Positions 10,008-42,250 of a stretch of 46,727 nucleotides of DNA are shown here, piece after piece. The notes beneath the pieces are model-generated. The model was not told where the DNA came from and did not search any database. It saw only the letters and a list, made by a program, of their open reading frames with translations. Each line of letters starts with the position of its first letter. The stretch's first letter is position 1. Both the position numbers and the translations under genes were made by a program. This DNA is from Chiloscyllium plagiosum. Taxonomy: Eukaryota. The stretch is taken from positions 1,317,036-1,363,762 of the forward strand of contig NC_057752.1 of the NCBI RefSeq assembly GCF_004010195.1. Reading direction: 5' to 3'.

Positions 10008-10420
10008 GTGGCACAGTGGCTCAGCAGTTAGCACTGCTACCTCACAGCGCCAGCGTCCTGGGTTTGATTCCAGCATTGGGTGACGATCTGTGTGGAGTTT
10101 GCACGTTCTCCCTGTGTCGAGAGTGTGGTGCTGGAAAAGCACAGCAGGTCAGACAGCATCTGAGCAGCAGGAGAATTGACATTTTGGGTATAAGCCCTTC
10201 ATTAGGAATCCCCATGTCTGCATGGTTTTCCTCTGGGTGCTCCAGTTTCCTCCCACAGTCCAAAGATGTGCAATTCAGGTGAATTGGCCATGCTAAATTG
10301 CCCACAGTGTTCAGGGATGTGTAGGTTAGGTGCATTAGTCAAGGATAAATGGTAGGAGAATGGGGTTGGTGTGATCTTAATGGGCCGAAGGGCCTGTTTC
10401 CACACTATAGGCATCTTATG
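10008..10420 (+). mobile_element. HE1-type tRNA-derived V-SINE (interrupted)
   Basis: tRNA-like head, V-domain tgtgtggagtttgcac...gtttcctcccacagtccaaagatgtgc, CR1-like tail gggccgaagggcctgtttcc. Confidence 0.85.
10119..10209 (-). mobile_element. Family A PLE module inserted in an HE1 SINE
   Basis: Reverse complement of the family A module. Flanked by ccctgtgtc (10110-10118) and ccccatgtc (10210-10218), both CpG-decay forms of the SINE sequence ccccgtgtc. Confidence 0.75.
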
Positions 10421-11359: not shown

Positions 11360-11670
11360 AGGGTGGCACATTGGGTCAGTGGCTAGCGCTGCTGCCTCAC
11401 AGCGCCAGGGTCCCAGGTTTGATTCCAGCCTCGGGTGACTGTCTGTGTGGAGTTTGCACATTCTCCCCGTGTCTGTGTGGGTTTCCTCCGGGTGCTCCGG
11501 TTTCCTCCCACAGTCCAAAGATGTGCAAGCCAGGTGAATTGGCCATGCTAAATTGCCCATAGTGTTAGGTGTATTAGTCAAAGGGAAATGGGTCTGGGTG
11601 GGTTACTCTTCGGAGGGTCGGTGTGGACTTGTTGGGCCGAAGGGCCTGTTTCCACTCTGGAGGGAATCTA
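11360..11670 (+). mobile_element. HE1-type SINE
   Basis: Full head, V-domain and tail. Confidence 0.88.
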
Positions 11671-12229
11671 AAACAGAAGAAAATGGTAAGATTCAGCCCT
11701 TGGTGTGGACTAACCAGGGTTTAATATATGTTTGGCACAAGTTAACTCAACCCTTTGAGATAGAAAGACCAGCGCTTAGTTGGGTTATTTCTGTTCATGG
11801 CCTCGCCAACTTGGGGAGCTGGTGACAACCAAGAAGGTTCTAGAACATGCTTTATTGTTCATTTATTGCTGCTAGAACTTCCTCACGATTGCCATTCAAG
11901 AAATACCATCACCATGGGGACTGCAGCAGCTCAGGTAGGAGGCCTATCGGCCCCTTTCTCATACAAACTTGCCCACACCCTGGCAGCAAATGACAAGAGG
12001 CCAATCAACGAGGTGGCACAAATTAGATGGGTCAAATGACCCCCTCTTTGCCTTTGTCAAAAACTTTCTGGACACACAAATATCTGAAATAAATTCGGTC
12101 ACGGTGCAATTTGCTGATCTCTGGCAGAGTGATGGGACTTTTTTTCATTCTTACACACCGACGAACACTTGAAGTGACCTCGTTATTTCTGCCATGTTAC
12201 ATCCAGGGCATCGTGCTCAGGATGATTCT

Positions 12230-12368
12230 GTAACCTGCACATCTTTGGATTGTGGGAGGAAACCAGAGCACCCGGAAGAAACCCACGCAGACATGGGGAG
12301 AATGTGCAAACTCCACACAGAGAGTCGCCCGAGGCTGGAATTGAACCTGGGTCCCTGGCGCTGTGAGG
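12230..12368 (-). mobile_element. HE1-type SINE fragment
   Basis: Reverse complement of head and V-domain. Confidence 0.8.
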
Positions 12369-12547
12369 CCCCTTTCTGACCTTGACAGGTTGCTGCCCTG
12401 AGTCTCAATTGACGAAGTGATTGAGGAGGAGGGCAGGGTAAAAGGTCACCATTCCACTCCCTCTGGGTCCCCGCCCCCCTCAGCACCCACCCATCATGGC
12501 AGGGTCACTCTGGACTCACAGTGTAAACACAGTGGCTCCAAGAGCAA

Positions 12548-13967: not shown

Positions 13968-14153
13968 TAAACACTGAGAATGCTGGAGAAACTCAGTAGG
14001 TCTGTACAAAGAGAGAGAGAGAGAGTTAATGGCTCAAGTCTGGTAGGACCCTTCTTTAGAATTTTGGGAAAGAGTCAAGCTGGACTTGAAACGTCTCTCT
14101 CCCCACACAGACACTGTCAGACCTGCTGAGTTTCTCCAGCAATTTCTGTTTTT
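13968..14153. mobile_element. Older inverted-repeat element (family C, probably PLE-derived)
   Basis: 24-bp inverted arms at 13981-14004 and 14118-14141 (1 mismatch); internal GAGTC..GACTT-GAAACGTC. Relatives near 27215-27400, 17375-17450, 18060-18125 and 39770-39840. Confidence 0.55.
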
Positions 14154-17140: not shown

Positions 17141-17744
17141 AAGGTCAGTATCTCCTCTTTCTAAAGCACGCTGAGAAAACAGAGAGGCAGATCATTGCTG
17201 AGCCATCCTGCTCTCCATTTTAACGTCCAGCTCACCTTTCAAACCCGTTGGATCGTAGGTTTCACAATCCAACAGCTTGGAACCAACAGCTTGGTTGCAA
17301 TCACACTGGTTGTGATGAATTTGAAGAAGTCATCTGACTGTTCACATGACGCAGTTACAAGGAACAGTGGGAAGTGAGGAAGGGTCACTGGACTCAAAAA
17401 CTGGAACCCTGTGTTTCTCTCTCGCTATAGACCTGCTGAGAGTTCTTCTGGTTTGGTTAGAGGGAAGGGAAATCTTTTCTCAAGCTGCAGGGGGTGGGCA
17501 GCGGACACTGAAGAACTTCTGTCTAACACGCTTTGGATTTTAATGGATTTTTAACCTATTTTTAGCTTTTACTTTTTGTGATTTTCACCATTCACGTGGG
17601 TTCTCAGGAATGGAACTCTCGCAGGTACGGAGGATTTTTGTTGTGGACGTGTAGTAAATGTTTTGACATGGGGAAAGTTCACATTCAGCAAGGTGAGAAT
17701 GGAGAGAGATCACAGACAATTGAATGGGCTGGTGCGTACATCCC

Positions 17745-17930
17745 AAAGGTGAAAGTGAGAACTGCAGATGCTGGAGATTAGAGTCAAGAATATGGTGCTG
17801 GAAAAGCACAGCAGGTCAGACAGCATCCGAGGAGCAGGAAATGATGAAGGGCTTTTGCCCGAGACGTCGATTTTTCCTGCTCCTCGGATGCTGCCTGACC
17901 TGCTGTGCTTTTCCAGTACCACACTCTGGA
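17745..17930. mobile_element. Family A inverted-repeat PLE module
   Basis: Arms about 17793-17841 and 17873-17921 are inverted around the degenerate core atgatgaagggcttttgcccgagacgtc. Confidence 0.75.
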
Positions 17931-18119
17931 CATAAATGACAAAGTTAAGATGCAGGCACAGCGAGCGATTAGGAAGGCAAATAGATTTGAATAAACATGT
18001 TGTAACATTTTGCTCCAGTGACACAGGGTATTGGCATGACCCAGATCCTGAATACCCTGCCATATCAGACTCAGAAGATTAACTCTGTTTCTCTCTCCAC
18101 AGAAGTTGCTAGGGTTTCT

Positions 18120-19165
18120 GGAGCACTGTACACAATTTTGGTCTCCCTTTTTTAAAAAAAAGAGGATGTAAATGAATTAGCTCACATGGTTTATTCCTGG
18201 GATCGCATCTTGAGAAATAGGAATGATATTATTAAACTAGAGAAGGTTCAGAAAAGACTGACCAGAATGTGACTGGGAATGGGGAGTGTTGGGAGTTATA
18301 AAACTAGACTGGGACTTTTCTCATTGGAGCGTAGGAGTGAACTTACTGAGGTTTATAAAATCATAAGGGGCATGGATAAGGTGAATGACAAGTGACTTTT
18401 CCCAAGAGTGGGTGAGTTCAAACCTAGGGGGGAAATATTTTAAAGGTGAGAGGAGAAAGATTTAAAAAGGACAGGACTAGATTCCCTCTGAAGAGTAACC
18501 CACCCAGACTGATTTCCCTCTGACTAATGCACCTAACTCTCGGGGCAATTTAGCACAGCCAATCCACCCTAACCTGCATATCTTTGGACTGTGGGAGGAA
18601 ACCCACGCAGACACAGGGAGAACGTGCAAACTCCACACAGACAGTCACTCGAGGGTGGAGTTGAACCCGGGTCCCTGGTGCTGTGAGGCAGCAGTGCTAA
18701 CCATTGAGCCACTGTGCCACCCTGACATGAGAGGCAACGTTTTTATACAGAGGGTGGTTCACTTATGGAATGAACTTCCAGAGAAAGTGGTGGATGTGGG
18801 CACAGTTACAATGTTTAAAGGGTATTTGGACAAGTTCATGAATAAGAAACGTTTGGAAGGATATGGGCAGGTGGGTGGGACTAGTTTAGTTTGGGAACAT
18901 GGTCGGCATGGACTGGTTGGACCAAAGAGGTTGTTTCCATGCTGTGTGACTCTAGGACTCTTAAGTTGGGCCTGTATCCATTGGAGTTTTGAATAATGAG
19001 AGGCAATTTGATTTAAGCTTATAAGACCTTGAGGAGTCTTGGTTGGCTGGATGCTGAGAGGGTGTTTCCCCTTGTGGAGAGACTAGAACACTGTTTAAAA
19101 ACTGGATCGCTGTTTAAAAATAAGAGGTCTCCCATTTAAAGCAGAGATGAGGAGCATTTGTTGTC
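18120..19165 (+). mobile_element. CR1 fragments interrupted by an HE1 SINE (18477-18720, minus)
   Basis: CR1 sequence resumes after the SINE (MRGNVFIQRVVHLWNELPEKVV). Confidence 0.8.
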
Positions 19166-19924: not shown

Positions 19925-20555
19925 TGAGAAAGTGTGTGAGAGTTTGTGTTTGTGTGTGTGAGAGAGAGAGTGTAAGTGTAAAAGAGTGTGTGAGTGAGTG
20001 TGTGTGTGAGAGCATGTTTATGAGTATGTGTGTGTGAGGGTGTGTCTGTGTGTCAGTGTGAAAGTGTGAGTGAGAGTTTGTATGTGAGTGTGTCAGTATG
20101 TGTGTGAGAGAGTGGTGCTGTGGGAGGAAACCAGAGCACGCGGACAAAACCTGGGTCGACACGGGGAGAATGTGCAAACTCCACACACACAGTCGCCTGA
20201 GGCTAGAACTGAACCCAGGAATGAAGGGCTCCTGCCCAAAACGTCGATTCTCCTGCTCCTCGGATGCTGCCTGACCTGCTGTGCTTTTCCAGCACCACTC
20301 TAATCTAGACTCTGATCTCCAGCATCTGCAGTCCTTACTTTTGCCTTGTGAGAGAGTGTGTGTATGTGCGTGTGTATGCACAAGAGAAAGAGTGTGTATG
20401 TGGGAGAGAGTGCATGAGAGAGATTGTGTGAGCGTGAGAGAGAGCGTGTGTATGCATGTGTGTATCTATGCGTGCGTATGTGAGAAAGTGTGTGTAAGAG
20501 AGAGAGATTGTGTTTGTGTGTGTATGTGTGTGTGCGTGTAGGTGTGAGTGTGTTG
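19925..20555. repeat. Compound (GT)/(GA) microsatellite, interrupted at 20109-20345
   Basis: Imperfect tgtg/agag runs. Confidence 0.9.
20109..20345 (+). mobile_element. Family A PLE module with a captured SINE fragment, inside a microsatellite
   Basis: Short inverted arm agagtggtgctg, then about 100 bp of HE1(-), then atgaagggctcctgcccaaaacgtcgattctcctgctcc... Confidence 0.7.
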
Positions 20556-22926: not shown

Positions 22927-25900
22927 CTGAAAAGGAAATGACACAGCAGCTAATAGAGTCGACCTCGCACTTACAGGAAGATATTCAACAACCATAAAAT
23001 GACAGGCCCCCCCCTTGTTCCTTTCTAAACACTGCCCTGCCCCACCCTCCCCACCCCCATAGTACACATCAGTTCTGAGGTAGCTTGCAAGCAGAGGTGA
23101 CAATGAGGTCCCCTCCTGGAATGAGCTCAAATCCGTGGAAAACAAGCAGTAAACAGCGATGATGCGAGGAGACCGTCTCTCAGTGGGTTACAACAACAAC
23201 AACCAGCAATCAGAGAGAGACATTCTCAGCTACACAAACCTGGGGGAATCAACAATGCCTTCCAGCGCATCTCCTCCACTTCCTGCACCTTCACCCTTGA
23301 ACCCCACCCCTCCAACCTCAACAAGGATAGAACCCCCCTGGTCCTCACCTTCCACTCCACTAATCTCTAGTCAGACCCCACCACCATTTCCCTCACCACC
23401 CCTATCTGCATTCTGCAGAGACCATTCCCTCTGTGACTCCTTCCTTAGGTCCATGCCCCACCAACCCTCCACTCCTGGCACCTTAACTTGCCGCTGCAAG
23501 AGGTGTAAAACCTGCGCCCACACCTCCCCCCTCACCTCCGTCCAAGCCCCAAAGGATCCTTCCACATCCAGCAGAGATTTTCCTGCACATCCAAACATCT
23601 CACCTACTGTATCCGTTGCTCTCAATGTGGTCTCCTCTACATTGGAGAGACAGGACACCAACTCACAAAACGTTTCAGAGAATATCTCTGGGATACATGA
23701 CCAACCAATCCCACTACCCTACTTCAACTCCCCCTCCCACTCTGCCAAGGACATGTAAGTCCTGGGCCTCCTCAACCACCAAATCCAAGACACCCAACAC
23801 CTGAATGAAGAACGCCTCATCTTCCACTTTGGGAACCTCCAACCGCACGGCATCAACATAGTCTTTACCAGTTTCCTCATCTCCTGTCCCCCAACTTCAT
23901 CCCAGAACCAACCCTCTGACTCAGCACCACCCTCTTGAACTGTCCTACCTGTCCATCTTCCTACCCACCTATCCACTCCACCCTCCTCTCTGACCTATCA
24001 CTATCGCTCCCCACTTGCATCTGCCTATCGCCTTCCCAGCTACTCTTCCCCCAGCCCCATTCCCACCCTCACCCTTTTATTTATCTCTCAGCCCCGCTTC
24101 CCACATTCCTGATGAAGAGCTTATGCCTGAAATGTCGACTCTCCTGCTCCTTGGATGCTGCCTGACCTGCTGTGCTTTTCCAGCGCCACACCACTTTGCG
24201 ACTCAGTCCACCCACCAGTCAAGATGCCACAGTTGGTAAGGGCAGTGTGGCATTGAGCTGTACAAACATGGGTCAAGTCTTGCATTCAATGCCCTGCGTT
24301 GACTAATCTTAACCCTAACTGGCCTCACCCCAACTGGTGTTGTCCAGGGCTTCCAAGAATAAAGGTTAGGATGTTCAATCATTGACTGACCAGGGAGAGT
24401 ACTAACCCAGAGTATGAGCAGAACACCCAACCTCTTTGTTACTCACATCATTTTGCATTCACCCACTGGGAGGATGCCCTCTCTCATGCCACTTGCTGAA
24501 CTGTGCCCAATTTCTGACCCTCAGAACCAGAGCGGTGTTGGTACTGTCAGGCTGAATACCTACACTTTGCCAAGTAATTCTGTCCGTAACTCTCTCGGAC
24601 CTCAGGAGAAAGTCTGTCCCAGAGACGCTGCAGGTCATTCTCGATGCCTGCCAGGTTCGTCACAGCTGTCTTAAAGAAGCCAGGCTCGATGATGCAAACC
24701 TGGATGCCAAAATGATGCATGTCCCGCCTAATAAAACACAATGGGAATGTAAGTGAGCAGGAAAACTCATAGAATGTTGTATTACAAGGGGACCTGAATG
24801 GAAGAGTAGGGAGATTACACTTAGGTTGTGTGTACAGTAGTGGACACCGTACTGATGGAAGGTTGTTAATGCGTTGGAAGCAGTTCAGAGAAGGCTTATG
24901 AGACTAATCCCTGGAACAAGTGGATTGCCTTATGAGGAAAGGCTGGACAGGCTAGGCCTGTGTCCTCTGGAGTTTAGAACAGTCAGAGGTGACTTAATTG
25001 AAACATATAAAATTCTGAGGGGGATTTGACCAGGTGGGTGTGGAAAGGTTGCTTCCTCTTGTGGGAGAATCGAGAACTAGGGTCATTGTTTTAAAATTTA
25101 AAACGGAGATGAGGAAACGTTTTTCTTCTCTCTCAGCAGACTGTTCTGAAAATCCTTTTATCGATTCATGTGCACTTTGGAACAGCTATTTGCACTTATA
25201 TGGCACCTTTAAATGCAGTGCAAAGGTTCCAAGATGCTTCACATTCTGTGCTACTGGTCAGGTGACAGAGAGGTCAGTTTGCAGAAGGAAAGTTTTACTG
25301 GAGGGGGGGGCGCGATTCTGGAGAGGAGGGTCTCAGCAGCTGAAGGCGTGGCCGGGGCGGGGTGTGGGGGGGAGTGATAAACATCAGAGAGCCTCCAAGA
25401 GGCGTGAGCTGGTGCAGTGCGGAGATGCAACGCACCCCGCATATCACCACAGTCCTCATCGGAAACTTTACCCTGGCACCTCACTCAGTCCCGCAGTGTC
25501 GGCCCCAGTTTGGGCTCAATTCACCCAAAAGCAACTTGAGAACGCGACGTCCCGACAGAGCCGCATGAGAGGGGGACTGGACTGACACCATCCCAACTGT
25601 GACAACGGCCTTTACCCAATCAGCAGTAACAGGCAGAATATTTGACCGGTTTTAGTCATTCAGGAGATGTGGACATCCTTGGCATTTATTGCCCATCCCT
25701 AATTGCCCCAGATGGGTAGTTGAGACTCAGCCCTGTTGCTGTGGGTCTGGAGTCACATGTAGACCGGGTAAGGGTAGCTGATTTCCTTCCCTAAGGGATA
25801 TCACTGAACCAGTTGGGTTTTTACTCCAATGGACACTGGTCACCTTTAGCCTTGATGTGGAGGGGCCGGTGTTGGACTGGGATGGACAACGTTAGAAATC

Positions 25901-28900
25901 ACACAGCACAGTGGTATAGTGGTCAGCACTGCTGCCTCACAGCGTCAGAGACCCAGGTTCAATTCCCGCCTCAGGCGACTGACTGAGTGGAGTTTGCACA
26001 TTCTCCCCAAGTCTGCGTGGATTTCCTCCGGGTGCTCCGGTTTCCTCCCACAGTCCAAAAATGTGCAGGTTAGGTGAATTGGCCATGCTAAATTACCCGT
26101 AGTGTTAGGTGAAGGGGTAAATGTAGGGGAGTGGGTTGCAGGTCGGTGTGGACTTGTTGGGCCAAAGGGCCCGTTTCCACACTGTAAGTAATCTAATCTA
26201 AAAACCACGTTATAGTCCAACAGGTTTATTTGGAAGCACGAGCTTTCAGAGCGCTGCTCCTTCATCAGGTAATTGTGGAGCAGGATCATAAAACACAGAA
26301 TTTATACCAAAAGTGTCATGCAATTAAAACGATATATTGAATCCAGGTTTGTTCAATATATCATTTTAATTGCCTGACAATGTTATTTGTTTGCTATAAA
26401 TTCTGTGTCCTATGATCCTGTCCCACTAGTTACTTGATGAAGGAGCAGCGCTCTGAAAGCTAGTGTTTCCAAATAAACCTGTTGGACTATAATGTGGTGT
26501 TGTGTGATTTTTAACTTTGTCCACCTTTAGCTGAGCTTTTTATTCCAGATTGCTATTGAATCACAAAGTGACCGTTCGCCTCAGAGGGATTTGTACCCAG
26601 TCCTGAGAACATTAGCGTGGGGCTTCTCAATTACTGGCCCCACCATGCCACGGCCCGAAACAAAACTGAAAGTGAACCATCATGACAACTCAGGTCCCTT
26701 GAAAGGTTTTGGTTTGTCGACATCGAGTACATGTAATGAGGCGGGTCAGGCTGCTTTTTTGATGAAAGTTTCTGCCCTTTGGTGTGGTTTAGGAATGACA
26801 GGCGTGCAAAGACTTTCTCGTCTGACTGCGCAAGACAGAAGTGAACAGGCGTGGAGAAGCTCACCTCAGACTGTCGGAGAAAGACTCCACACCACATTTG
26901 GAGAGGCAGTACCCACCCCCAGCAAGCGATATCCTGCCCAGAATACTAGCTACGTTCACGATCCGGCCCCTGGCCTTCTTCACCAGTGGGAGGAAGGTCA
27001 GCGTCACTTCCATCAATCCAAACAAATTCACATTCAGCACTTTTAAATAATCCTCCATCTTCATCCATTCTGTTGGACCAATGGGAATGGCTCTCCCGGC
27101 GTTGTTGACCAACCCCCATAGGCCTGTCAGGGAAAGGGGACAACATTTTGAGGAAACAGCAGGATTTGGAAATATAACGGAAGCAAAACATTGAGGGAGC
27201 TGGCGATCTGAATTACAAACAGAAGTTGCTGGAGAAACTCAGTCGGTCTGGTAGCATCTGTGAAGACAAAAAAGCCAGAGTTCACCTTTCGACTCCAAGA
27301 TGACTTATTCAGAATGGAAATGTGGAGGAAGGATCATATTAGACTCAAAATGTTCTCTCTGTTTCTCTCTTGCTGCCAGACCTGTTGAGTTTCTCAGGTT
27401 TCGCAATGTACTCACTTGTCCCTTTTTCATCCTGTTATCAGCTCTGCTTCCCCAGCCCCTTGTCGCCAAATAACAAGCAACTCACACGGAATAGTGATTT
27501 GAACAAAGCTTTCGAGGTGTTAAGGATAACAGCCAGGGAAGATTGTCAAAAACTACTTCCAGAATTTGGACACTCTGGGACGAGGGGCTGCAGCCAGGCA
27601 TTTCAGGAGCAGAATGAGGAGTTACTGATGAGGAGAACCATCTTCACTCAGGGAGCTGGGAGCCTGTGAAACTCTCTGCCACAGAAAGCAGTTGTGGCCA
27701 AACGAATAAATCTTTTCAAGGAGGAGTTCAATATTGTTCTTAGGGATAAAGGGATCAAAGGGTATGGGCAGAAAGTGGAAACAGGGGACTGAGTTGGATG
27801 ATCAGCCATGATCAGATTGAATGGCAGTACAGGTTCGAAGGGCCGAATGGCCTACTCCTATTCCCAGTTTCTATGTTTCAATGTTTCCATCCAAGTGAGG
27901 TGGAAGTTTGGAACTCTCTTCAAAGAAATGATAGACGATCTGATTGAAACATACAAGATTCTGAGGGAGCTTGACAGGGGTGGGGTGGGGAGAGGTTGTT
28001 TCCCCTTGAGGGAGTCTAGGACCAGACGGCATCATCTCTGAATAAGGGGTCACATATTTCAGCAGAGATGAGGAGGAATGTCTTCTCCCAGAGGGGAGTG
28101 AATCTGTGGAATTCTTTACCACAGAGGGCTGTCGAGACTGGGTCATTCAGTATGTTCAAGGCGGAGACAGACAGATTTTTAATCAGGGAAGGGAATGAAG
28201 GGTGTGTGGGGGAAAGGCAGGAAAGTGGGTTTGAGGATGATTGGATCAGCCATGATCCCATTGAAGCTTTTTGCCAACTTGTTTCGCCTGTCAGTACCCC
28301 TCTGCAGACTCTCTGTGTCCATCCTCACCACTTGCCTTCCCACCTATTTTTGTCGTATCTACAAACGTGGCTACAGTACATTTACTTTCCTCATCCAAGT
28401 CATTAATATAGTTTGTAAATAACTGTGGCCCCAGCACTGATCCCTGTGGCACTCCACAAGTTACAGGTGTCATCCTCAGAAAGCACCCCACTGCCCCCCC
28501 CCCACCGGGCGGCACGGTGGCACAGTGGTTAGCACTGCTGCCTCACAGCGCCAGAGACCCGGGTTCAATTCCCGCCTCAGGCGACTGACTGTGTGGAGTT
28601 TGCACGTTCTCCCCGTGTCTGCGTGGGTTTCCTCCGGGTGCTCCGGTTTCCTCCCACCATCCAAAGATGTGCAGGGTTAGGTGAATTGGCCATACTAAAT
28701 TGCCTGTAGTGTTAGGTAAGGGGTAAACGTAGGGGTATGGGTGGGTTTCGCTTCGGCGGGTCGGTGTGGACTTGTTGGGCCGAAGGGCCTGTTTCCACAC
28801 TGTAATCTAATCTAAACCCCTTATCCAAACTCTCCGTCTTTTATTAGTTAGCCAATCCGCGATTTGAACAAAGCTTTCGAGGTGTTAAGGATAACAGCCA

Positions 28901-31610
28901 GGGAAGATTGTCAAAAACTACTTCCAGAGTTTGGACACTGGGACTAGGGGCTGCAGCCAGGCATTTCAGGAGCAGAATGAGGAGTTACTGATGAGGAGAA
29001 CCGTCTTCACTCAGGCTAAAATACTACCCCAGCACCGTGGGCTCTGGCCTTATAAAGGAGCCTAATGTATTGTCCTTTACCTTCTGACAATCCAAATATG
29101 TTACATCCACTGCCTTCCCCCTTTACCTATCCTGTTTGGTAGCTCCCCAAAGAACCTGAATAATTTTCTCAGGCATTATAGAACATTCCAGCACAGTACA
29201 GGCCCTTCGGCCTTCAATGTTGCGCTGACCTGTGAAACCAATCTGCAGCCTATCTAACCTACACTATTCCATTTTCATCCATATGTCTATCCAATGACCA
29301 TTGAAATGCCCTTAAAGTTTGCGAGTCTACTGCTGGCAGGGCTTTCCACGCCCCTACTACTCTCTGAGTCACTACCCTCTGACAGAAGAAACCTCTCCTC
29401 ATCTCTGTCATGAAAGGGCAATCCCTTACTTGGAGACAATGTCCTCTGGTTGTACTCTCCTGCAATGGGAAACAACCTTTTTGCACTTACCCTGTCACGT
29501 TCCCTAAGAATCCTGTCCACACAGTTAACCTGCCTGTGTCCCTCTGCGGATCCCTTGTGTCAGGTCCCCAGTCCAGAAGCACAAGAATCTGTGATTAGAA
29601 CACTTTATGATCCCATGCCAACTCTGCTTGATCTTACAATGTATTTCGAATGCTCTGCTGTTACAATAGACGTGAACATTTTCCCCGAGACCAGGCGTTA
29701 AGCTAACATCAACAAACATCTGGAATGCAAGAAAATGTCAAGTGGTTGTAACGTCCTGCTGTCCACGTGTGTCCTTTGAGCTGCAGTGCTCTGCAGGCTC
29801 TGGTAATTCCGATCATTTGGACGTTTGGAAAGCCCAGAGAAGATCCCCATTGACGACCTCAGTGGGCTTTCTACCAATGGTCGGGCAACGCTGAAGCCAC
29901 CTCTTGTGGAAATCAGAGGAGATAGGAAGACCTCAAGTCACAGAGTCATGGAGATGTACAGCATGAAAACAGACCCGATTTCCTAACCTAAGCCAGTCCC
30001 ATTTACCAGCACTTGGCCCATATCCCTCCAAACCCTTCCTATTCCTATTCCTATTAGGAGTGGCACGGTGGCTCAGTGGTTAGCACTGCTGCCTCACAGC
30101 ACCTAGGATCCAGGTTCAATTCCAGCCTCGGGTGACTGTCTGTGTAAAGTTTGCATATTCTCCCTGTGTCTGTGTGGGTTTCCTCTGACTGCTCTGGTTT
30201 CCTCCCACAGTCCAAAGATGTGCAGGTTAGGGTGGATTGGCCATGTAAAATTACCCATAATGTTAGGTGCATTAGTCAGAGGGAAATGGGTCTGGATGGG
30301 TTACTCTTCAGAGGGTCTGCGTGGACTTGTTGGGTTGAAGGGCCTGTTTCCACACTGTGGGGAGTCTAATCTAATCTATTCATATCCCCATCCAGATGCC
30401 TTTAAAATACTGTCATTGTACCAGCCTCCACCACATCCTCTGGCTGCTCGTTCCATACACGTACCACCCTCTGTGTGAAAAAAGATGCCCCTTAGGTCTC
30501 TTTTAAATCTTTCCCCTCTCACCCTCAACCTATGCCCTCTAGTTCTGGACTCCATCCCAACCCTTTTTTTTCTAGAAAACCATTTTCTTGCCAACCCACC
30601 TCCAAACCTGCCCCCCACAAAGTGCTGGGGGAACTCCTCTGGGGAACATCAGGCAAGCCTCCGACTCCTGGTGATTGGAAGGCAAAGTGACCGAAGGGGG
30701 CTTTGCCTGTGGTCGCTCGCTGCAGCACCCCCCTGTGTTAAATGAACAGGCCTTCTCCTTGAAGGTTAACCTAAAAGTCCACACATTAAAAGTTGACGGG
30801 TAGAGCCCGAGTGTCTCTGGAGAAGGAGCACGCGGTGTCCACCGACACCCTGGAGTTGTTCAGGGAGAGGTGGGTGTCACAGGGAGTGGAGTGCATTATT
30901 TCCCCCTCCAATTCTATTTTGATTTAATCCCTGCCCTCCCCTTCACTGTTTGATCACACAGCATTGCCCTTTGATGTGAAGGGCACTGCTTGTCACTGGC
31001 CACTCGGGTGTTTCCTTTCTTTCTGATGGTGGGAATTGAATAAAGATTTGTGCACCTTGTGTCTCTCACACCTGAACAAAAAAAAGACAAGAGAGAAAAA
31101 AAATAATCAGGAGTGCCAGATATCCTGCTCACACTGAGAGCTGCCTCTGAGGGAGCTGGATCAGTGTGGAAGTGAAGGGCTCTGCTCTTTTCCCTATGCT
31201 AAAGAAAGGAGACAGGACTGATTCTCTGTCCTCGCATTAAGGAGGAGTTTATTTTGAAGAAGAAAAAATCAAAGCTGACAGGTACCTTTCTCTCCCACCT
31301 CTGCCTGAACCCAGTCCGCTGCCTTCTGTATGCTGCTACAGTCAGTCACATCCAGGAGGATGGCTTTCAGCATGGACGCGTTGCTGCTCTGGAGGCCGTC
31401 CACTCCTTTTTGGGTCAGGCAGCCAGCGAGGACGCGGAACCCTCGCCTCTCCAGGCGCTTTGCCAGGAGGTTGCCGAAGCCCGTGTCACAGCCGGTGATG
31501 AAGACAAACTTGTCTTTGACCTGCCCGACTTCCTGACGGTCTCGGTGGAGCCACCAAACGGTGAGCAGAGCAGCAGCAGCAGCAGCAGCAGCGAGGAGGT
31601 ACACCCACAT
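22703..31610 (-). CDS. RDH5: Retinol dehydrogenase 5-like short-chain dehydrogenase/reductase (SDR9C family); spliced CDS join(31610-31286,27123-26865,24727-24564,22926-22703), 323 aa
   Basis: Exons of 325+259+164+224 nt join in frame with GT-AG sites. Motifs: TGCDTGFG (TGxxxGxG), LLDVT, LVNNAG, VNVAS, YCLSK (YxxxK), [28 protein letters not shown]. The C-terminal [20 protein letters not shown] and RDMHHFGI segments resemble RDH5 more than RDH16/HSD17B6 as I recall them. Family is secure; orthology needs a tree or synteny. Confidence 0.85.
23255..24195 (+). mobile_element. Penelope-like retroelement 3' fragment (decayed GIY-YIG endonuclease plus terminal module, family A)
   Basis: Frameshifted peptides: [65 protein letters not shown] (YIG at 23638-23646), [17 protein letters not shown]. 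Ends in the CTGATGA...GAAA module. Confidence 0.85.
24109..24136 (+). ncRNA. Degenerate minimal hammerhead ribozyme motif (family A) at the PLE end
   Basis: CTGATGA-A-GAGC-TTAT-GCCT-GAAA-TGTC. The consensus from sister copies is CTGATGA-A-GGGC-TT(T/A)T-GCCC-GAAA-CGTC. Confidence 0.6.
24564..24727 (-). CDS. RDH5: RDH5-like coding exon 3
   Basis: Acceptor tgtgttttattAG at 24729-24728; [24 protein letters not shown]...SYGQNYLAK; donor T|GTAGGT at 24563; 164 nt. Confidence 0.95.
24860..25130 (+). mobile_element. CR1 fragment in an RDH5 intron
   Basis: tatgaggaaaggctggacaggctagg...agaggtgacttaattgaaac. Confidence 0.75.
25908..26203 (+). mobile_element. HE1-type SINE nested in a family B element
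   Basis: Head, V-domain and (AATCT)n tail. Confidence 0.88.
26240..26268 (-). ncRNA. Minimal hammerhead motif (family B), intact core on the RDH5 sense strand
   Basis: Minus strand reads CTGATGA-A-GGAGC-AGC-GCTCT-GAAA-GCTC. Confidence 0.65.
26865..27123 (-). CDS. RDH5: RDH5-like coding exon 2 (NNAG, catalytic Ser and YCLSK)
   Basis: Acceptor tcccctttccctgacAG at 27125-27124; (G)LWGLVNNAG...[18 protein letters not shown]; donor AG|GTGAGC at 26864; 259 nt. Confidence 0.95.
27215..27400. mobile_element. Family C inverted-repeat element
   Basis: ttgctggagaaactcagtcggtctggtagca versus tgctgccagacctgttgagtttctcag. Confidence 0.5.
27496..29520. mobile_element. Cluster of CR1 fragments on both strands
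   Basis: [12 protein letters not shown] (+) and [14 protein letters not shown]...FVDTTKIGG (-); several 3' tails. Confidence 0.8.
28508..28815 (+). mobile_element. HE1-type SINE, young (CpGs retained)
   Basis: ggcggcacggtggcacagtggttagc...gggttcaattcccgcc...(taatc)n. Confidence 0.92.
29940..30555. mobile_element. CR1 3' end (-) interrupted by an HE1 SINE (+, 30059-30375)
   Basis: CR1 resumes after the SINE; ctatt is present on both sides. Confidence 0.85.
30797..31055 (+). mobile_element. Probable Tx1/L1-group LINE 3' end
   Basis: 30802-30927 reads [41 protein letters not shown], like Tx1 ORF2 C-termini as I recall them; AATAAA at 31039-31044. Confidence 0.5.
31286..31610 (-). CDS. RDH5: RDH5-like coding exon 1 (membrane anchor plus Rossmann TGCDTGFG)
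   Basis: ATG at 31610-31608, [16 protein letters not shown]...VGEKG. Donor AAG|GTACCT at 31285 (phase 1). Upstream acceptor tcttgtttcccctcAG at 31630-31629 leaves 18 nt of 5' UTR. Confidence 0.93.
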
Positions 31611-32206
31611 GGAGTCCGTTTGAAGAGGCTGAGGGGAAACAAGACCAGATCGTAAGGAAGAGGGACCCGCTCACAAGTTCACAGCACAAAATCACACTCG
31701 TTAGGCAAGGTGGGGTGGGGGGTGCCATTTTAAGGTTTCGAAGGCATTGAAGGAAAATGGCTCCCCCCCCCAGAGGGTGGTGGGGGTCTGGCTGGGTGGG
31801 AAAGTGCCAATATTCACTCATACATTCAAGGCCTTGGGCCTAATGCAACAAAGTGGTGTTAGTGTAGATTCTACAGTATGATTCTATCATCATTCTCCTT
31901 TTCCATGGAATACTCCATAGAAGCTGCCCCAAAAAGGCCTACTTGGCCAATGCACCCCTCAGCGTACCCCCTGAGACCTCCAAACCAGCAGAGGTCCCCA
32001 GATTGAGCCCTGCTCTGCCCCCAAGAAATGAAAAGCTCCCTCCGGTGTGGGAAGGCATCGGCATCTTGTGCGACTACAGTTTGCAAAAGCATTTGAACAG
32101 ACTTCAAAGGCAAGCCGAAACATAGAAAACGTAGGGTCCAGCATAGATGGCAAAGATGCCTTAGATAGATCCCCATCTATCTAAGTATCACCTAACAGAT
32201 GAACTA

Positions 32207-33030
32207 GGGAGGCCATGGTTAGTAATGTTACTGGCTCCAGTGCTTCAGAACTCCCAGGGGTGGCTCAGTCATTAGCACAGCTGCCTCACAGTGCCAGGGA
32301 CCTGGGTTCAATCCCACCCTCAAGCAACTGTCTGTGTGGAGTTTGCACATTCTCACTGTGTTTATGTGGGTTCCCTCCCTCAGTCCAAAGATGTGCAGGT
32401 TAGGGGGGGATTAGCCATGGTATGACGTCCAGGGGTGTGCGGGCTAGGTGAGTTAGCCAAGGGAGATGCAGGGTTACTGGGATAGGGTGGGTCTGGGTGG
32501 GATGCTCTTCAGAGGGGTGGTGTGGGCTCAAATGGGCTGAATGCCCTGCTTCCACACAGTAGGGCATTCTATGATGATTCTAATGACCTGGGTTCAAATG
32601 GCCAGGAGAACATGAGGACTGGAGATCAGAGTGGAGAGTGTGGTGCTGGAAAAGCACAGCAGGTCAGGCAGCATCCGGGGAGCTGGAGGATTGACGTTTC
32701 GGGCATAAGCCCTTTATCAGGAATGCCTGAAATGTTGATTCTCCTGTTCCTCGGATGCTGCCTGACCCGCTGTGCTTTTACAGCGCCACACTCTCGCTTC
32801 AAATACCCACCGTGGCAGATGGCGAAAGTGAAATTCATTCCACCCCATCTGGGTTCACTAATGTCCTTCAGGGAAGGAAAGTGCTGTCCTCATCTGGTCT
32901 GGGCCTACTGTGTGAGTCCAGACCTACAGCAATGTGGTTGACTCTTAAAATGCCCCCTGGGCAATTAGGGATGGGCAATAAATACAGGCCTAGCAGCAAT
33001 GTCAACATCCCATTAACAGCTTTAAAAAGA
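32207..33030 (+). mobile_element. tRNA-head SINE (third family) hosting nested HE1 (about 32258-32580) and PLE-A insertions
   Basis: Body ggttcactaatgtccttcagggaaggaaa...cagcaatgtggttgactctt; tail gggcaattagggatgggcaataaat. Relatives at 22285-22425(+), 25670-25840(-) and 13700-13935(+). Confidence 0.7.
32600..32797. mobile_element. Family A inverted-repeat PLE module in a SINE B box
   Basis: Inverted arms; minus-strand core ctgataaagggcttatgcccgaaacgtc; 7-bp direct repeat TTCAAAT at 32593-32599 and 32798-32804. Confidence 0.75.
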
Positions 33031-34415: not shown

Positions 34416-35003
34416 TGGAGACCATTCAGCCCCATGTGATCATCCAGCTATACTATAATGACTCACATCCTCCCATTGAATATGGGACTCGCTGCCACAA
34501 GGAGTAGGTAAGCATTGGAACCCCTGCCCTGTTTCTCCCCCGCACCTCGAACGGGTGACTTTAAATAAAGCCCTCAGCCAGTTTAGGGCGAAAAGAAAAT
34601 CCTTCCTCTCCCAAAGCCAGGAAATTGCAATGAACTGCGCAGTCCATGGAGCAGCAAAGCAGCCAGCTCAGCCAACTCCAGGAGAAGCTCAGTTTTAAAT
34701 CTGCATCAAAAACATACCCACCTGGATTAGCCACAACCGAATGCACAGTTCTTTGAGTTTCAGAAAACTCCTCCCATCATTGAACCTGGTTCTGTGCTTA
34801 TGTGATTTCTCTTCAACTTATCTATTTCAAGTTAAAATTTATGCAATTTCAATCATTTGTCCACACGCCCCTTTATGATTTTAAACATATAGAAGTTGGG
34901 AAGTTAGGCTGCAGCTGTACAGGACGTTGGTGAAGCCGCACCTGGAGTATTGTGTTCGGTTTGGTCACCTCGCTATAGGAAGGATGTTATCGAACGGATG
35001 CAG

Positions 35004-35206
35004 AGGTGCCGGTGTTGGACTGGGGTGGACAATGTTAAAAATCACAGGACACCAGGTTATAGTCCAACAGGTTTATTTGGAAGCACACTGGCTTTCAGAG
35101 CACTGCCCCTTCATCAGGAAGGGCTTTTGCCCAATATGTCAATTTTCCTGCTCCTCGGATGCTGCCTGACCTGCTGTGCTTTTCCAGCACCACTCTAATC
35201 TTGACT
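35004..35206. mobile_element. Chimeric family B(-)/family A(+) PLE-type module inside a CR1 fragment
   Basis: 35004-35117 is the reverse complement of family B and 35118-35206 is family A. The junction lies at the hammerhead cores. Confidence 0.7.
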
Positions 35207-40610: not shown

Positions 40611-41010
40611 GAAAAGAGGGCATTAGTGGGCAAAAAAAAAGAGCTGGACTGGGTAGAGGGCAACACAGATGGCAGTGACGTGTGCATTAGGGCTTTCTTA
40701 TAGTGATTGTGGGGTTATGTGAATTGAATGAGAACCAATCGGAATACTGCCCTGGTGTTGTCTCCAGGGCGTCACTGTGCACTGTCATTCAGCAGGCAGT
40801 CATGTGGGTGCTCATTGTCATCGATGGTCTGCGGAAGGGTGTGAAGAAGATGGCGTGATTTGATACCATCACCCTGAGATCTCTCTCCCTTAGTTGGTTT
40901 GTACAGTTTTGGATTACTTGTTGCTTTAGTTAGACCCTTGGGCATGTGACTCCTATACTTAGCATCTTATCCCAGTCATTTGGTTTGTCTGTAGCACCAC
41001 CTTACTTTGA

Positions 41011-41205
41011 TTTGGAGATGTCAGTGTTGGACTGGGGTGGACAAAGTTAAAAATCACACAACACCAGGTTATAGTCCAACAGGTTTAATTGGAAGCACAC
41101 TAGCTTTCGGATAACTACCTGATGAAAGAGCAGTGCTCTGAAAGCTAGTGCTTCCAATTAAACCTGTTAGACGATAACCTGGTGTTGTGTGATTTTTAAC
41201 TATGT
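41011..41205. mobile_element. PLE-type family B inverted-repeat element
   Basis: Arms about 41036-41108 and 41140-41210 are inverted. Flanking direct repeat CCACCTTACTTTGA at 40997-41010 and 41206-41219. Confidence 0.75.
41119..41147 (+). ncRNA. Minimal type-I hammerhead ribozyme motif (family B), intact core
   Basis: CTGATGA (41119-41125), A, perfect stem II AGAGC/GCTCT with AGT loop, GAAA (41140-41143), then GCTA, giving palindromic AGCT and a CUA cleavage triplet. Stem I is short (tac/gtg). Confidence 0.7.
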
Positions 41206-41259
41206 CCACCTTACTTTGAATTCAGTGTAAGTATCTCTCTGCCTCATTTAATCAGATTA

Positions 41260-41535
41260 TCGCTTGTTGACACTTTCTTCACACTGTCTAACACACTTGG
41301 TCACCTGCAGAGACTTATTGTCTGACATTCCACTCACACCAGTTGTGTGATCGCTTGACCTCTCTGTCCTTGATCTCTCCGCCTGTAACTCTGTGTCTGT
41401 GTGCTCTTCTCCCTCACTACACTCGATGAAGGAGCAGCGTTCCGAAAGCTTGTGATTTCAAATAAACCTGTTGGACTATAACCTGGGGTTGGGTGACTTC
41501 TGACCTCGTCCACCCCAGTGGCACTTCCACATCAA
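41260..41535 (+). mobile_element. Diverged family B PLE-type terminal module
   Basis: tcgatgaaggagcagcgttccgaaagctt...aataaacctgttggactataacctgg...gtccacccc, homologous to the family B arms. Confidence 0.6.
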
Positions 41536-42250
41536 TATACAGAGAGCCAGATTTTTATTCAGGAAGGGAATCGAGGGTTAGGGGGGAGAGAGCAGGAAAG
41601 TGGAGTTGAGGGTGATCAGATCACTGTGTGATCTCACTGAATGGCAGACCAGCATCGATGGACCGAGTGGCCTGCTTCTTCTACTCGATCTTATACAGTC
41701 AGTAGAGAAATTGCAACTGGGCACTCCTGGCATTAGGCTTTGTGAAAGGTGCCAGGCAGCCTAGCTTAGACAGTGAGTGCACAATGGTTGGATTTCTTGC
41801 ATTTGAACTTCAGCCTCTGATCAGAATCCCCCAACTTTCAAACTCGGAAGCTCCGAGCACTGATCCCACTGGCCTGACTTTCACTTGTGTTCTCAGCATT
41901 TACCCTGATCTCACTTTCAGGCCACTCTCACAGCCCAGTATTATTACACAGGCACTCGCATTCACTGAGGATTAGATTCACCTTGTTAATCTTGCTTAAA
42001 GCCGAGCACATGCTATAAACTCGGAAGTGCTTGCAAACCAGGCCCCAGTTAATACAGAGCACGAGAAAGCAGCCACAAGCAGTAATGAAGAAGATAAATA
42101 CAGTGCATCAATAGATTACAATCTAAAGTGATAATCACTAAAGAATGGGAATATTCTCATTGTAGGGGTGTGCTGATTCATTTCTGTTATAATTAACTAG
42201 CCTGGCTCATTTTCAACTTTTGGGCATGACCTTGTGGGCATGACCCTTGT

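Follow-up and report, generated by a model that had tools for sequence, protein, structure and literature searches.

Hammerhead-bearing inverted units in a shark genome as probable insertion products of two Penelope-like families

Short inverted units carrying hammerhead cores in the genome of the shark Chiloscyllium plagiosum are very probably the hammerhead-plus-tail ends (~90–130 nt in each arm) of two Penelope-like element (PLE) families, inserted as heavily 5'-truncated copies whose inverted arm was often built in the same insertion. An inverted 5'-truncated copy, a tail on one side and a target duplication make up the shape of PLE insertions described in the accessible text of two earlier studies (PMC8557442, PMC3846280), and the palindromes analyzed here match that shape.

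The window, that is, the whole stretch of DNA that was analyzed, comprises 46,727 nt of contig NC_057752.1. It is repeat-rich vertebrate DNA with fragments of LINE reverse transcriptase, and the two hammerhead families, A and B, occupy about 5% of it. Two opposed SINE-like copies, 708 nt apart, form a 134-nt, 93% inverted repeat at 11394–12369, and no tRNA gene was called in the window. The minus strand bears exons of a short-chain dehydrogenase at 31269–31670 and 26861–27238 (Pfam adh_short), which we take to be retinol-dehydrogenase-like.

Table 1. Hammerhead cores, arms, units and target duplications in the window
Feature	Positions	Strand	Remarks
Family-A cores	10178–10205(−), 17841–17868(+), 20218–20245(+), 24109–24136(+), 32693–32720(−)		Fuzzy motif search
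Family-B cores	26241–26268(−), 26434–26461(+), 35090–35117(−), 41119–41146(+), 41423–41450(+)		Fuzzy motif search
Solo family-A stub within SINE-like repeat	10119–10209	−	Flanks overlap by ~10 nt on other copies of the SINE-like repeat
Family-A inverted unit	17730–17931		Inverted arm ends ~4 nt beyond predicted cut; forward arm begins at U4
Solo family-A stub, long tail	20221–20335	+	Begins inside core
5'-truncated, frameshifted Penelope-like element	23240–24195	+	Zinc-finger-like linker, GIY-YIG, 3' UTR, family-A hammerhead 24109–24136, short tail
Family-B inverted unit, two cores	25854–26527		Cores 26268 (minus, intact) and 26434 (plus); interrupted by SINE-like repeat at ~25921–26200; 10-bp target duplication CACCTTTAGC
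Family-A inverted unit	32600–32797		Arms joined via 3–4-nt overlap; 7-bp target duplication TTCAAAT
Head-to-head chimera	35003–35206		Family-B arm (minus, long tail) and family-A arm (plus, short tail) joined at core; inside CR1-like LINE
Left target-site duplication, focal insertion	40997–41010	+	14 bp, CCACCTTACTTTGA; duplication script
Inverted family-B arm, long tail	41011–41111	−	5' end within helix II (~+18 from C3), hence without 5' core box
Forward family-B arm, short tail	41112–41209	+	Begins 7 nt ahead of core; final 4 nt overlap target duplication
Minimal type-I hammerhead motif	41116–41150	+	3-bp helix I, CUGAUGA 41119–41125, extra A, 5-bp helix II, GAAA, GC, UA
Right target-site duplication, focal insertion	41206–41219	+	Duplication script
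Diverged family-B stub	41387–41535	+	~80% to other copies; core broken (TCGATGA)

Hammerhead cores and the probable Penelope-like ends that carry them

A fuzzy search of the whole window with two 28-nt motifs, allowing up to six substitutions, recovered 10 hammerhead cores, five in each family (Table 1); a sequence-only reading of the same DNA had put the number at about 10 in two families, with correct motifs and coordinates. Both family patterns contain the complete set of minimal type-I hammerhead features (CUGAnGA, GAAA, helix II, palindromic 15.2–16.2 and UH). The proposal that both families keep the CUGAUGA and GAAA boxes and stem II holds at the level of these patterns but not copy by copy: all catalytic boxes, helix II, the helix III pair and UH were present together in only two of the 10 copies (26268 and 41119), and both of these lack G10.1–C11.1, having G-U and A-U there instead.

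The loose pattern CTGATGA-N8-30-GAAA matched the window four times against a shuffle mean of 1.24, and two of 100 shuffles also reached four; alone it is weak. We then used a structural descriptor requiring the core, a helix II of 4–7 bp, GAAA, a paired 15.2–16.2 and UH, with 40 dinucleotide shuffles as the control. With an exact core it matched twice (41119 and 26268) and never in the 40 shuffles; with one core mismatch there were four matches, compared with a mean of 0.025 and a maximum of one in the 40 shuffles. A search of the window against Rfam at the gathering cut-off gave no hit at all, none of the Rfam models fitting these cores, and below threshold the region 40900–41600 yielded just hairpin-like miRNA and snoRNA matches.

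Family A is the hammerhead-plus-tail end of an endonuclease-bearing PLE, as seen from an attached ORF. The core at 24109 ends an 870-nt stretch with broken frames that holds a C-x4-C-x2-C linker and a GIY-YIG domain. The frame 23242–23922 matched Pfam GIY-YIG with an E value of 0.0022, short of the curated cut-off. By tblastn, relatives cover 23239–23987, and the ORF region matched the shark protein P0005 (42% over 180 aa, E 3e-31) and P0001 (E 1e-24), both of which score above the GIY-YIG cut-off, P0005 weakly. The reverse-transcriptase match is weak in the relatives P0005 and P0009, and P0011 exceeds both the reverse-transcriptase and the GIY-YIG cut-offs. Four relatives were found among five candidates for a 51-aa piece of the ORF, P0001 being the longest; P0001 as query gave 12 relatives among 898 candidates, led by proteins of Rhincodon, Stegostoma and Chiloscyllium, and no related locus in prokaryote genomes; these closest named relatives are in keeping with a carpet-shark host. 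The window contains no reverse-transcriptase sequence of either family, that of family A having been lost by truncation of the window copy. The hammerhead lies ~200 nt past the ORF, which ends near 23890–23930.

The C-x4-C-x2-C linker is present in the window frame 23240 and in P0001, P0005 and P0017. A cysteine-rich linker marks the Neptune and Nematis clades in the available parts of one survey (PMC8557442), and the shark families carry a linker of this kind.

Family B has no ORF in the window detectable by tblastn. A pattern covering both cores found no locus in viral contigs, none in prokaryote genomes and one in metagenomes, the marine contig locus L001; a second family-B pattern found none in either of two sequence collections. 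In L001, the core and tail match the family-B copies of the window (78% over 67 nt, E 8e-7), and a frameshifted ORF ends ~210 nt 5' of the core (stop near 675, core at 886). The end of this ORF matches P0017 (95% over 21 aa and 66% over 29 aa, E 5e-15) and P0018 (E 4e-17); P0017 has a reverse-transcriptase domain and 38% identity to the family-A protein P0005. From homology to this single distant locus, we infer that family B is also a PLE end. The earlier assignment of the cores to the minimal type-I hammerheads of PLEs is upheld, for family A by the attached ORF; for family B it is probable, via the homologous locus. L001 itself (523–1000) is a 5'-truncated PLE end in AT-rich DNA, with a 5-bp helix I and a B-type core sharing 26 of 29 nt with a window copy, a similarity suggesting that family B either is deeply conserved or has moved horizontally.

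Arms, centers and insertion of the units

The focal unit represents a single insertion, in which a long-tailed inverted arm meets a short-tailed forward arm head to head. Its target duplication is 14 bp long, and the first 4 nt of this coincide with the end of the forward arm. The element span of 41011–41219 given previously needs trimming: 41011–41205 is element, but 41206–41219 is the right target duplication. The predicted cut falls after 41147. Helix II (AGAGC/GCTCT) lies within 63-nt arms of 95% complementarity, and the perfect stem described for this copy, with A-T in place of G-C, is indeed in the sequence. The T of the A-T pair (41127/41139) is common to four of the five B copies and stands at a CpG site, so that a single private change makes the pair; we therefore rejected it as a sign of selection. 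Downstream, the diverged stub at 41387 may extend upstream to ~41222. The cores at 41119 and 41423, of the same family and strand, are 304 nt apart, a spacing suitable for a dimeric hammerhead, and the second core is broken.

The palindrome center differed in all four same-family units, so each insertion likely made a palindrome of its own. In each of these four palindromes the tail of one arm is 20–50 nt longer than that of the other. Arms within one unit are 95, 92 and 86% alike; between units, identities are much the same, 85–96% for family A and 89–94% for family B without the diverged copy. A script found target duplications of 7, 10 and 14 bp on three of the nine elements tested and nothing clear for the other six. 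All five head-to-head units (17730, 25854, 32600, 35003 and 41011) have the long tail at the left and the short tail at the right of the plus strand, an arrangement with a chance of ~0.06 under random orientation.

We then placed the 5' ends of 14 arms relative to C3. Seven lie between −7 and +5, three at about +14, +18 and +32, and four further upstream, at least −36, −73, −82 and −870, the last running into the PLE ORF. Only one end (+32) adjoins the predicted cut site. With half of the arms ending at the front of the core and one near the cut, templates appear to have been mostly uncut, and cleavage-defined 5' ends were rejected as the main source of the stubs.

Contigs were aligned to family A only, at 23150–24300: 101,576 of 19.4 million in run X1, 123,346 of 23.1 million in X5 (bearing another organism label) and 7,821 of 1.8 million in X17 (guessed to be RNA). 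Summed depth in X1 was ~10 in the unique flank, 1.3e4–1.7e6 in the ORF, 1.6–2.8e4 just 5' of the core and 1.4–1.6e7 in the tail; such depth is not copy number and shifts with the drift of the 23240–24195 copy from its family, and the values are consistent with short ends being vastly in excess. The best-supported loose end on the 5' side, followed by unrelated letters, is at 24104, 5 nt before C3 (734, 815 and 96 contigs in the three runs), where reference indels at 24094–24099 may themselves break alignments. At 24118, G makes up 89% of the depth and restores helix II. Among the 15 joints listed (there are 1157 others), summed depth was at most 294, compared with 10^6–10^7 on the arms. Two joints among these 15, the only ones between opposite strands, have 2–5 contigs per run and put the end of the inverted arm right by the predicted cut (24136/24137), namely at 24135 and 24137. 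These joints speak against uncut templates, and cleaved RNA may have been the source of a minority of arms.

These features can be accommodated by a mechanism modeled on a lizard PLE. The accessible text on Poseidon of Anolis carolinensis reports, in vitro, two internal starts of reverse transcription and uncut RNA as the main template (Frangieh et al. 2024, PMC11167929). By analogy, the endonuclease and reverse transcriptase of the shark element itself would likely have written in the units as heavily 5'-truncated copies: the enzyme would nick both strands and begin copying at either of two internal sites 3' of the hammerhead, which would give the two tail lengths, and the two cDNAs would extend inward and then be joined, sometimes via a few shared bases. 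Since most arms retain the core, the copied RNA would have been uncut. Ribozyme activity is likely confined to the parent element, in dimeric form or aided by protein. For the pile-up of 5' ends at the front of the hammerhead, a somewhat favored account is that the RNA begins there and that priming in the first terminal repeat yields short run-off cDNAs; stalling of the polymerase at the fold is possible though less probable, and a repair bias is doubtful.

Some of the solo stubs might instead have been re-inserted in trans by the PLE enzyme, part of them forming a SINE-like non-autonomous lineage, with the palindrome still made at insertion. The tail depth, ~100 times that of the median ORF bin, and the length of the arms, 10 of 14 being shorter than ~130 nt, would fit such a lineage, and in the available parts of a rotifer study cis-acting terminal repeats were enough for mobilization in trans (PMC3846280). 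However, truncated or run-off copies of full-length RNA would look alike, and the stub tails are 87–93% identical to the ORF-attached copy, as they are to each other, with no sign of a separate lineage in eight arms. We consider this alternative unlikely. The sequence-only reading had gone further, proposing non-autonomous families that spread as whole inverted-repeat units of 100–400 bp. Five head-to-head units in 47 kb with the same tail asymmetry, and target duplications that flank entire units, are what fixed elements would leave, but the differing centers, the arm that runs 870 nt into the PLE ORF, the lack of a high-depth joint among the 15 listed and a focal-unit transcript predicted to form one long hairpin with its core buried all speak against it; the proposal is improbable and we do not retain it. 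Truncated PLE copies, with the inverted arm often made during insertion, remain our preferred reading.

Stubs occur within an abundant SINE-like repeat, and this repeat in turn occurs in a B unit (10119–10209, 20221, 25921–26200 and 32600), and this nesting in both directions indicates that their activities overlapped in time. At 13969–14153, 27206–27409 and 18061–18125 lies a third and older family; its tail is related, its hammerhead-like cores are decayed, and it too forms inverted units.

The chimeric unit and the state of the genomic cores

The unit at 35003–35206, which joins arms of both families, has the same tail asymmetry as the same-family units and no detectable target duplication. 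The surrounding CR1-like LINE lacks ~370 bp relative to three other copies in the window; a fourth copy gave ~130 bp and a fifth had no good right-flank match. Read in register, the center of the chimera carries an A-type base at a position where T stands in all three of the other B cores that were compared, and AA comes next, just as it does in inverted arms of family A. Such a center agrees with a deletion that joined a B unit to a neighboring A unit via the common 12-nt core. In both same-family B units, private variants are common to the two arms, which indicates one source for both; the arms of the 41011 unit differ by a 2-nt indel that is present in another copy. Later deletion between B and A units is probably the origin of the chimera. 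A single insertion from two RNAs of two PLE families, primed at nicks ~370 bp apart and joined at the hammerhead core, is a less probable origin that we hold tentatively; if true, the inverted arm of PLE insertions would come from a second template rather than from the fold-back of one.

Decay, covariation and folding bear on whether the host could be retaining the copies as functional ribozymes, which might for instance cleave intronic RNA from the neighboring short-chain dehydrogenase gene. Two copies have all catalytic boxes, and the 26268 copy follows closely after a same-strand dehydrogenase exon. Across five B-type cores, 40 of 40 cells of helices I and II pair and two pairs change on both sides, but 67 of 500 shuffles of these five sequences reach this, so that covariation is not above that of shuffles; between the shark cores and L001, helix I shows a two-sided A-U to U-A change. 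Catalytic positions of the cores differed from the pattern at 9 of 106 sites (8.5%) and the tails at 24 of 427 (5.6%; Fisher p 0.27), in a test that is small (106 core positions) and in which using the same five copies as reference lowers the tail divergence. The cores decay no more slowly than the tails, with no sign of selection in this small sample.

The cost of adopting the hammerhead fold was 21 kcal/mol in the focal unit, 4.4 in its forward arm alone and 53 in the palindrome of the 26268 copy, so that the inverted arms would sequester both intact cores. The focal hairpin has a z of −18. Pairing with the inverted arm spans the cut site of this unit, whose core is predicted to lie hidden within the hairpin; the genomic copies are predicted to be inert. 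Dimers of PLE hammerheads reportedly cleave, according to a 2017 paper. Minimal hammerheads are described as inactive as monomers and weak as dimers in the accessible portion of an earlier study (PMC4209133), which also argues against a host function. A role as host ribozymes is accordingly very improbable.

Relation to known elements

By the features tested, the units likely belong to insertions of endonuclease-bearing PLEs with minimal hammerheads, and the insertion pattern is already known in other animals. As early as 2014, in the part of the paper available to us, truncated PLEs were named as the source of scattered single minimal hammerheads and of pairs on opposite strands (Cervera and De la Pena 2014, PMC4209133). 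Among the metazoan PLE pLTR hammerheads treated there, helix II is 7–8 bp in Schistosoma, whereas it is 4–5 bp in the shark families. The same text, in which sharks do not figure, gives ~4,000 hammerheads per genome for coelacanth and ~9,000 for Xenopus, compared with two strict matches in 47 kb here, from which the density in the shark may be far higher as judged from one window.

Endonuclease-bearing PLEs as described in the accessible text of two studies (Arkhipova et al. 2013, PMC3846280; Craig et al. 2021, PMC8557442) are similarly 5'-truncated, with a head-to-head inverted copy and a tail at one end, and have target duplications of 8–10 bp or a microhomology junction without one. Unlike them, most of the shark insertions are reduced to the last 90–130 nt, and one unit combines two families. 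In Poseidon, in the available parts of its description (PMC11167929), two reverse-transcription starts 3' of the hammerhead account for long and short tails, uncut RNA is the main template and both strands are cut and extended, as would apply to the shark families too; these differ in having the cysteine-rich linker of the Neptune/Nematis kind.

Non-LTR retrozymes, as far as the available text of two reports goes (Cervera and De la Pena 2020, PMC7229834; Li, Clavereau and Pollet, bioRxiv 10.64898/2026.07.22.740005), are likewise short non-coding repeats with type-I hammerheads, kin to PLE pLTRs, and have been reported in one chondrichthyan; they form head-to-tail tandem arrays, whereas the shark units are solo or head-to-head. 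Type-I hammerheads in short repeats would suit tandem-type retrozymes, and terminal inverted repeats with target duplications would suit miniature DNA transposons, but self-comparison of the window revealed no head-to-tail array, the duplications vary in length (7, 10 and 14 bp), the ends are asymmetric and the arms are homologous to the 3' end of a retroelement, so that either origin can practically be set aside in favor of truncated PLE copies.

We found no description of shark families A and B in the main text of open-access papers; the supplements of PMC4209133 and bioRxiv 10.64898/2026.07.22.740005 may list chondrichthyan families, and the whale shark genome paper just lists Penelope as present. 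The present analysis contributes two shark families to a class already known, and palindromes of this type should be annotated as Penelope insertion products rather than as new mini-elements or host ribozymes. The PLE cycle is called still undefined in papers, and with a genome this rich in stubs one can tabulate the positions at which copying begins and ends with respect to the hammerhead, and ask if the two arms of a unit can derive from different RNAs. If true, two-template insertion together with run-off copies of hammerhead-started RNA would explain the very large number of ribozyme motifs in sharks.
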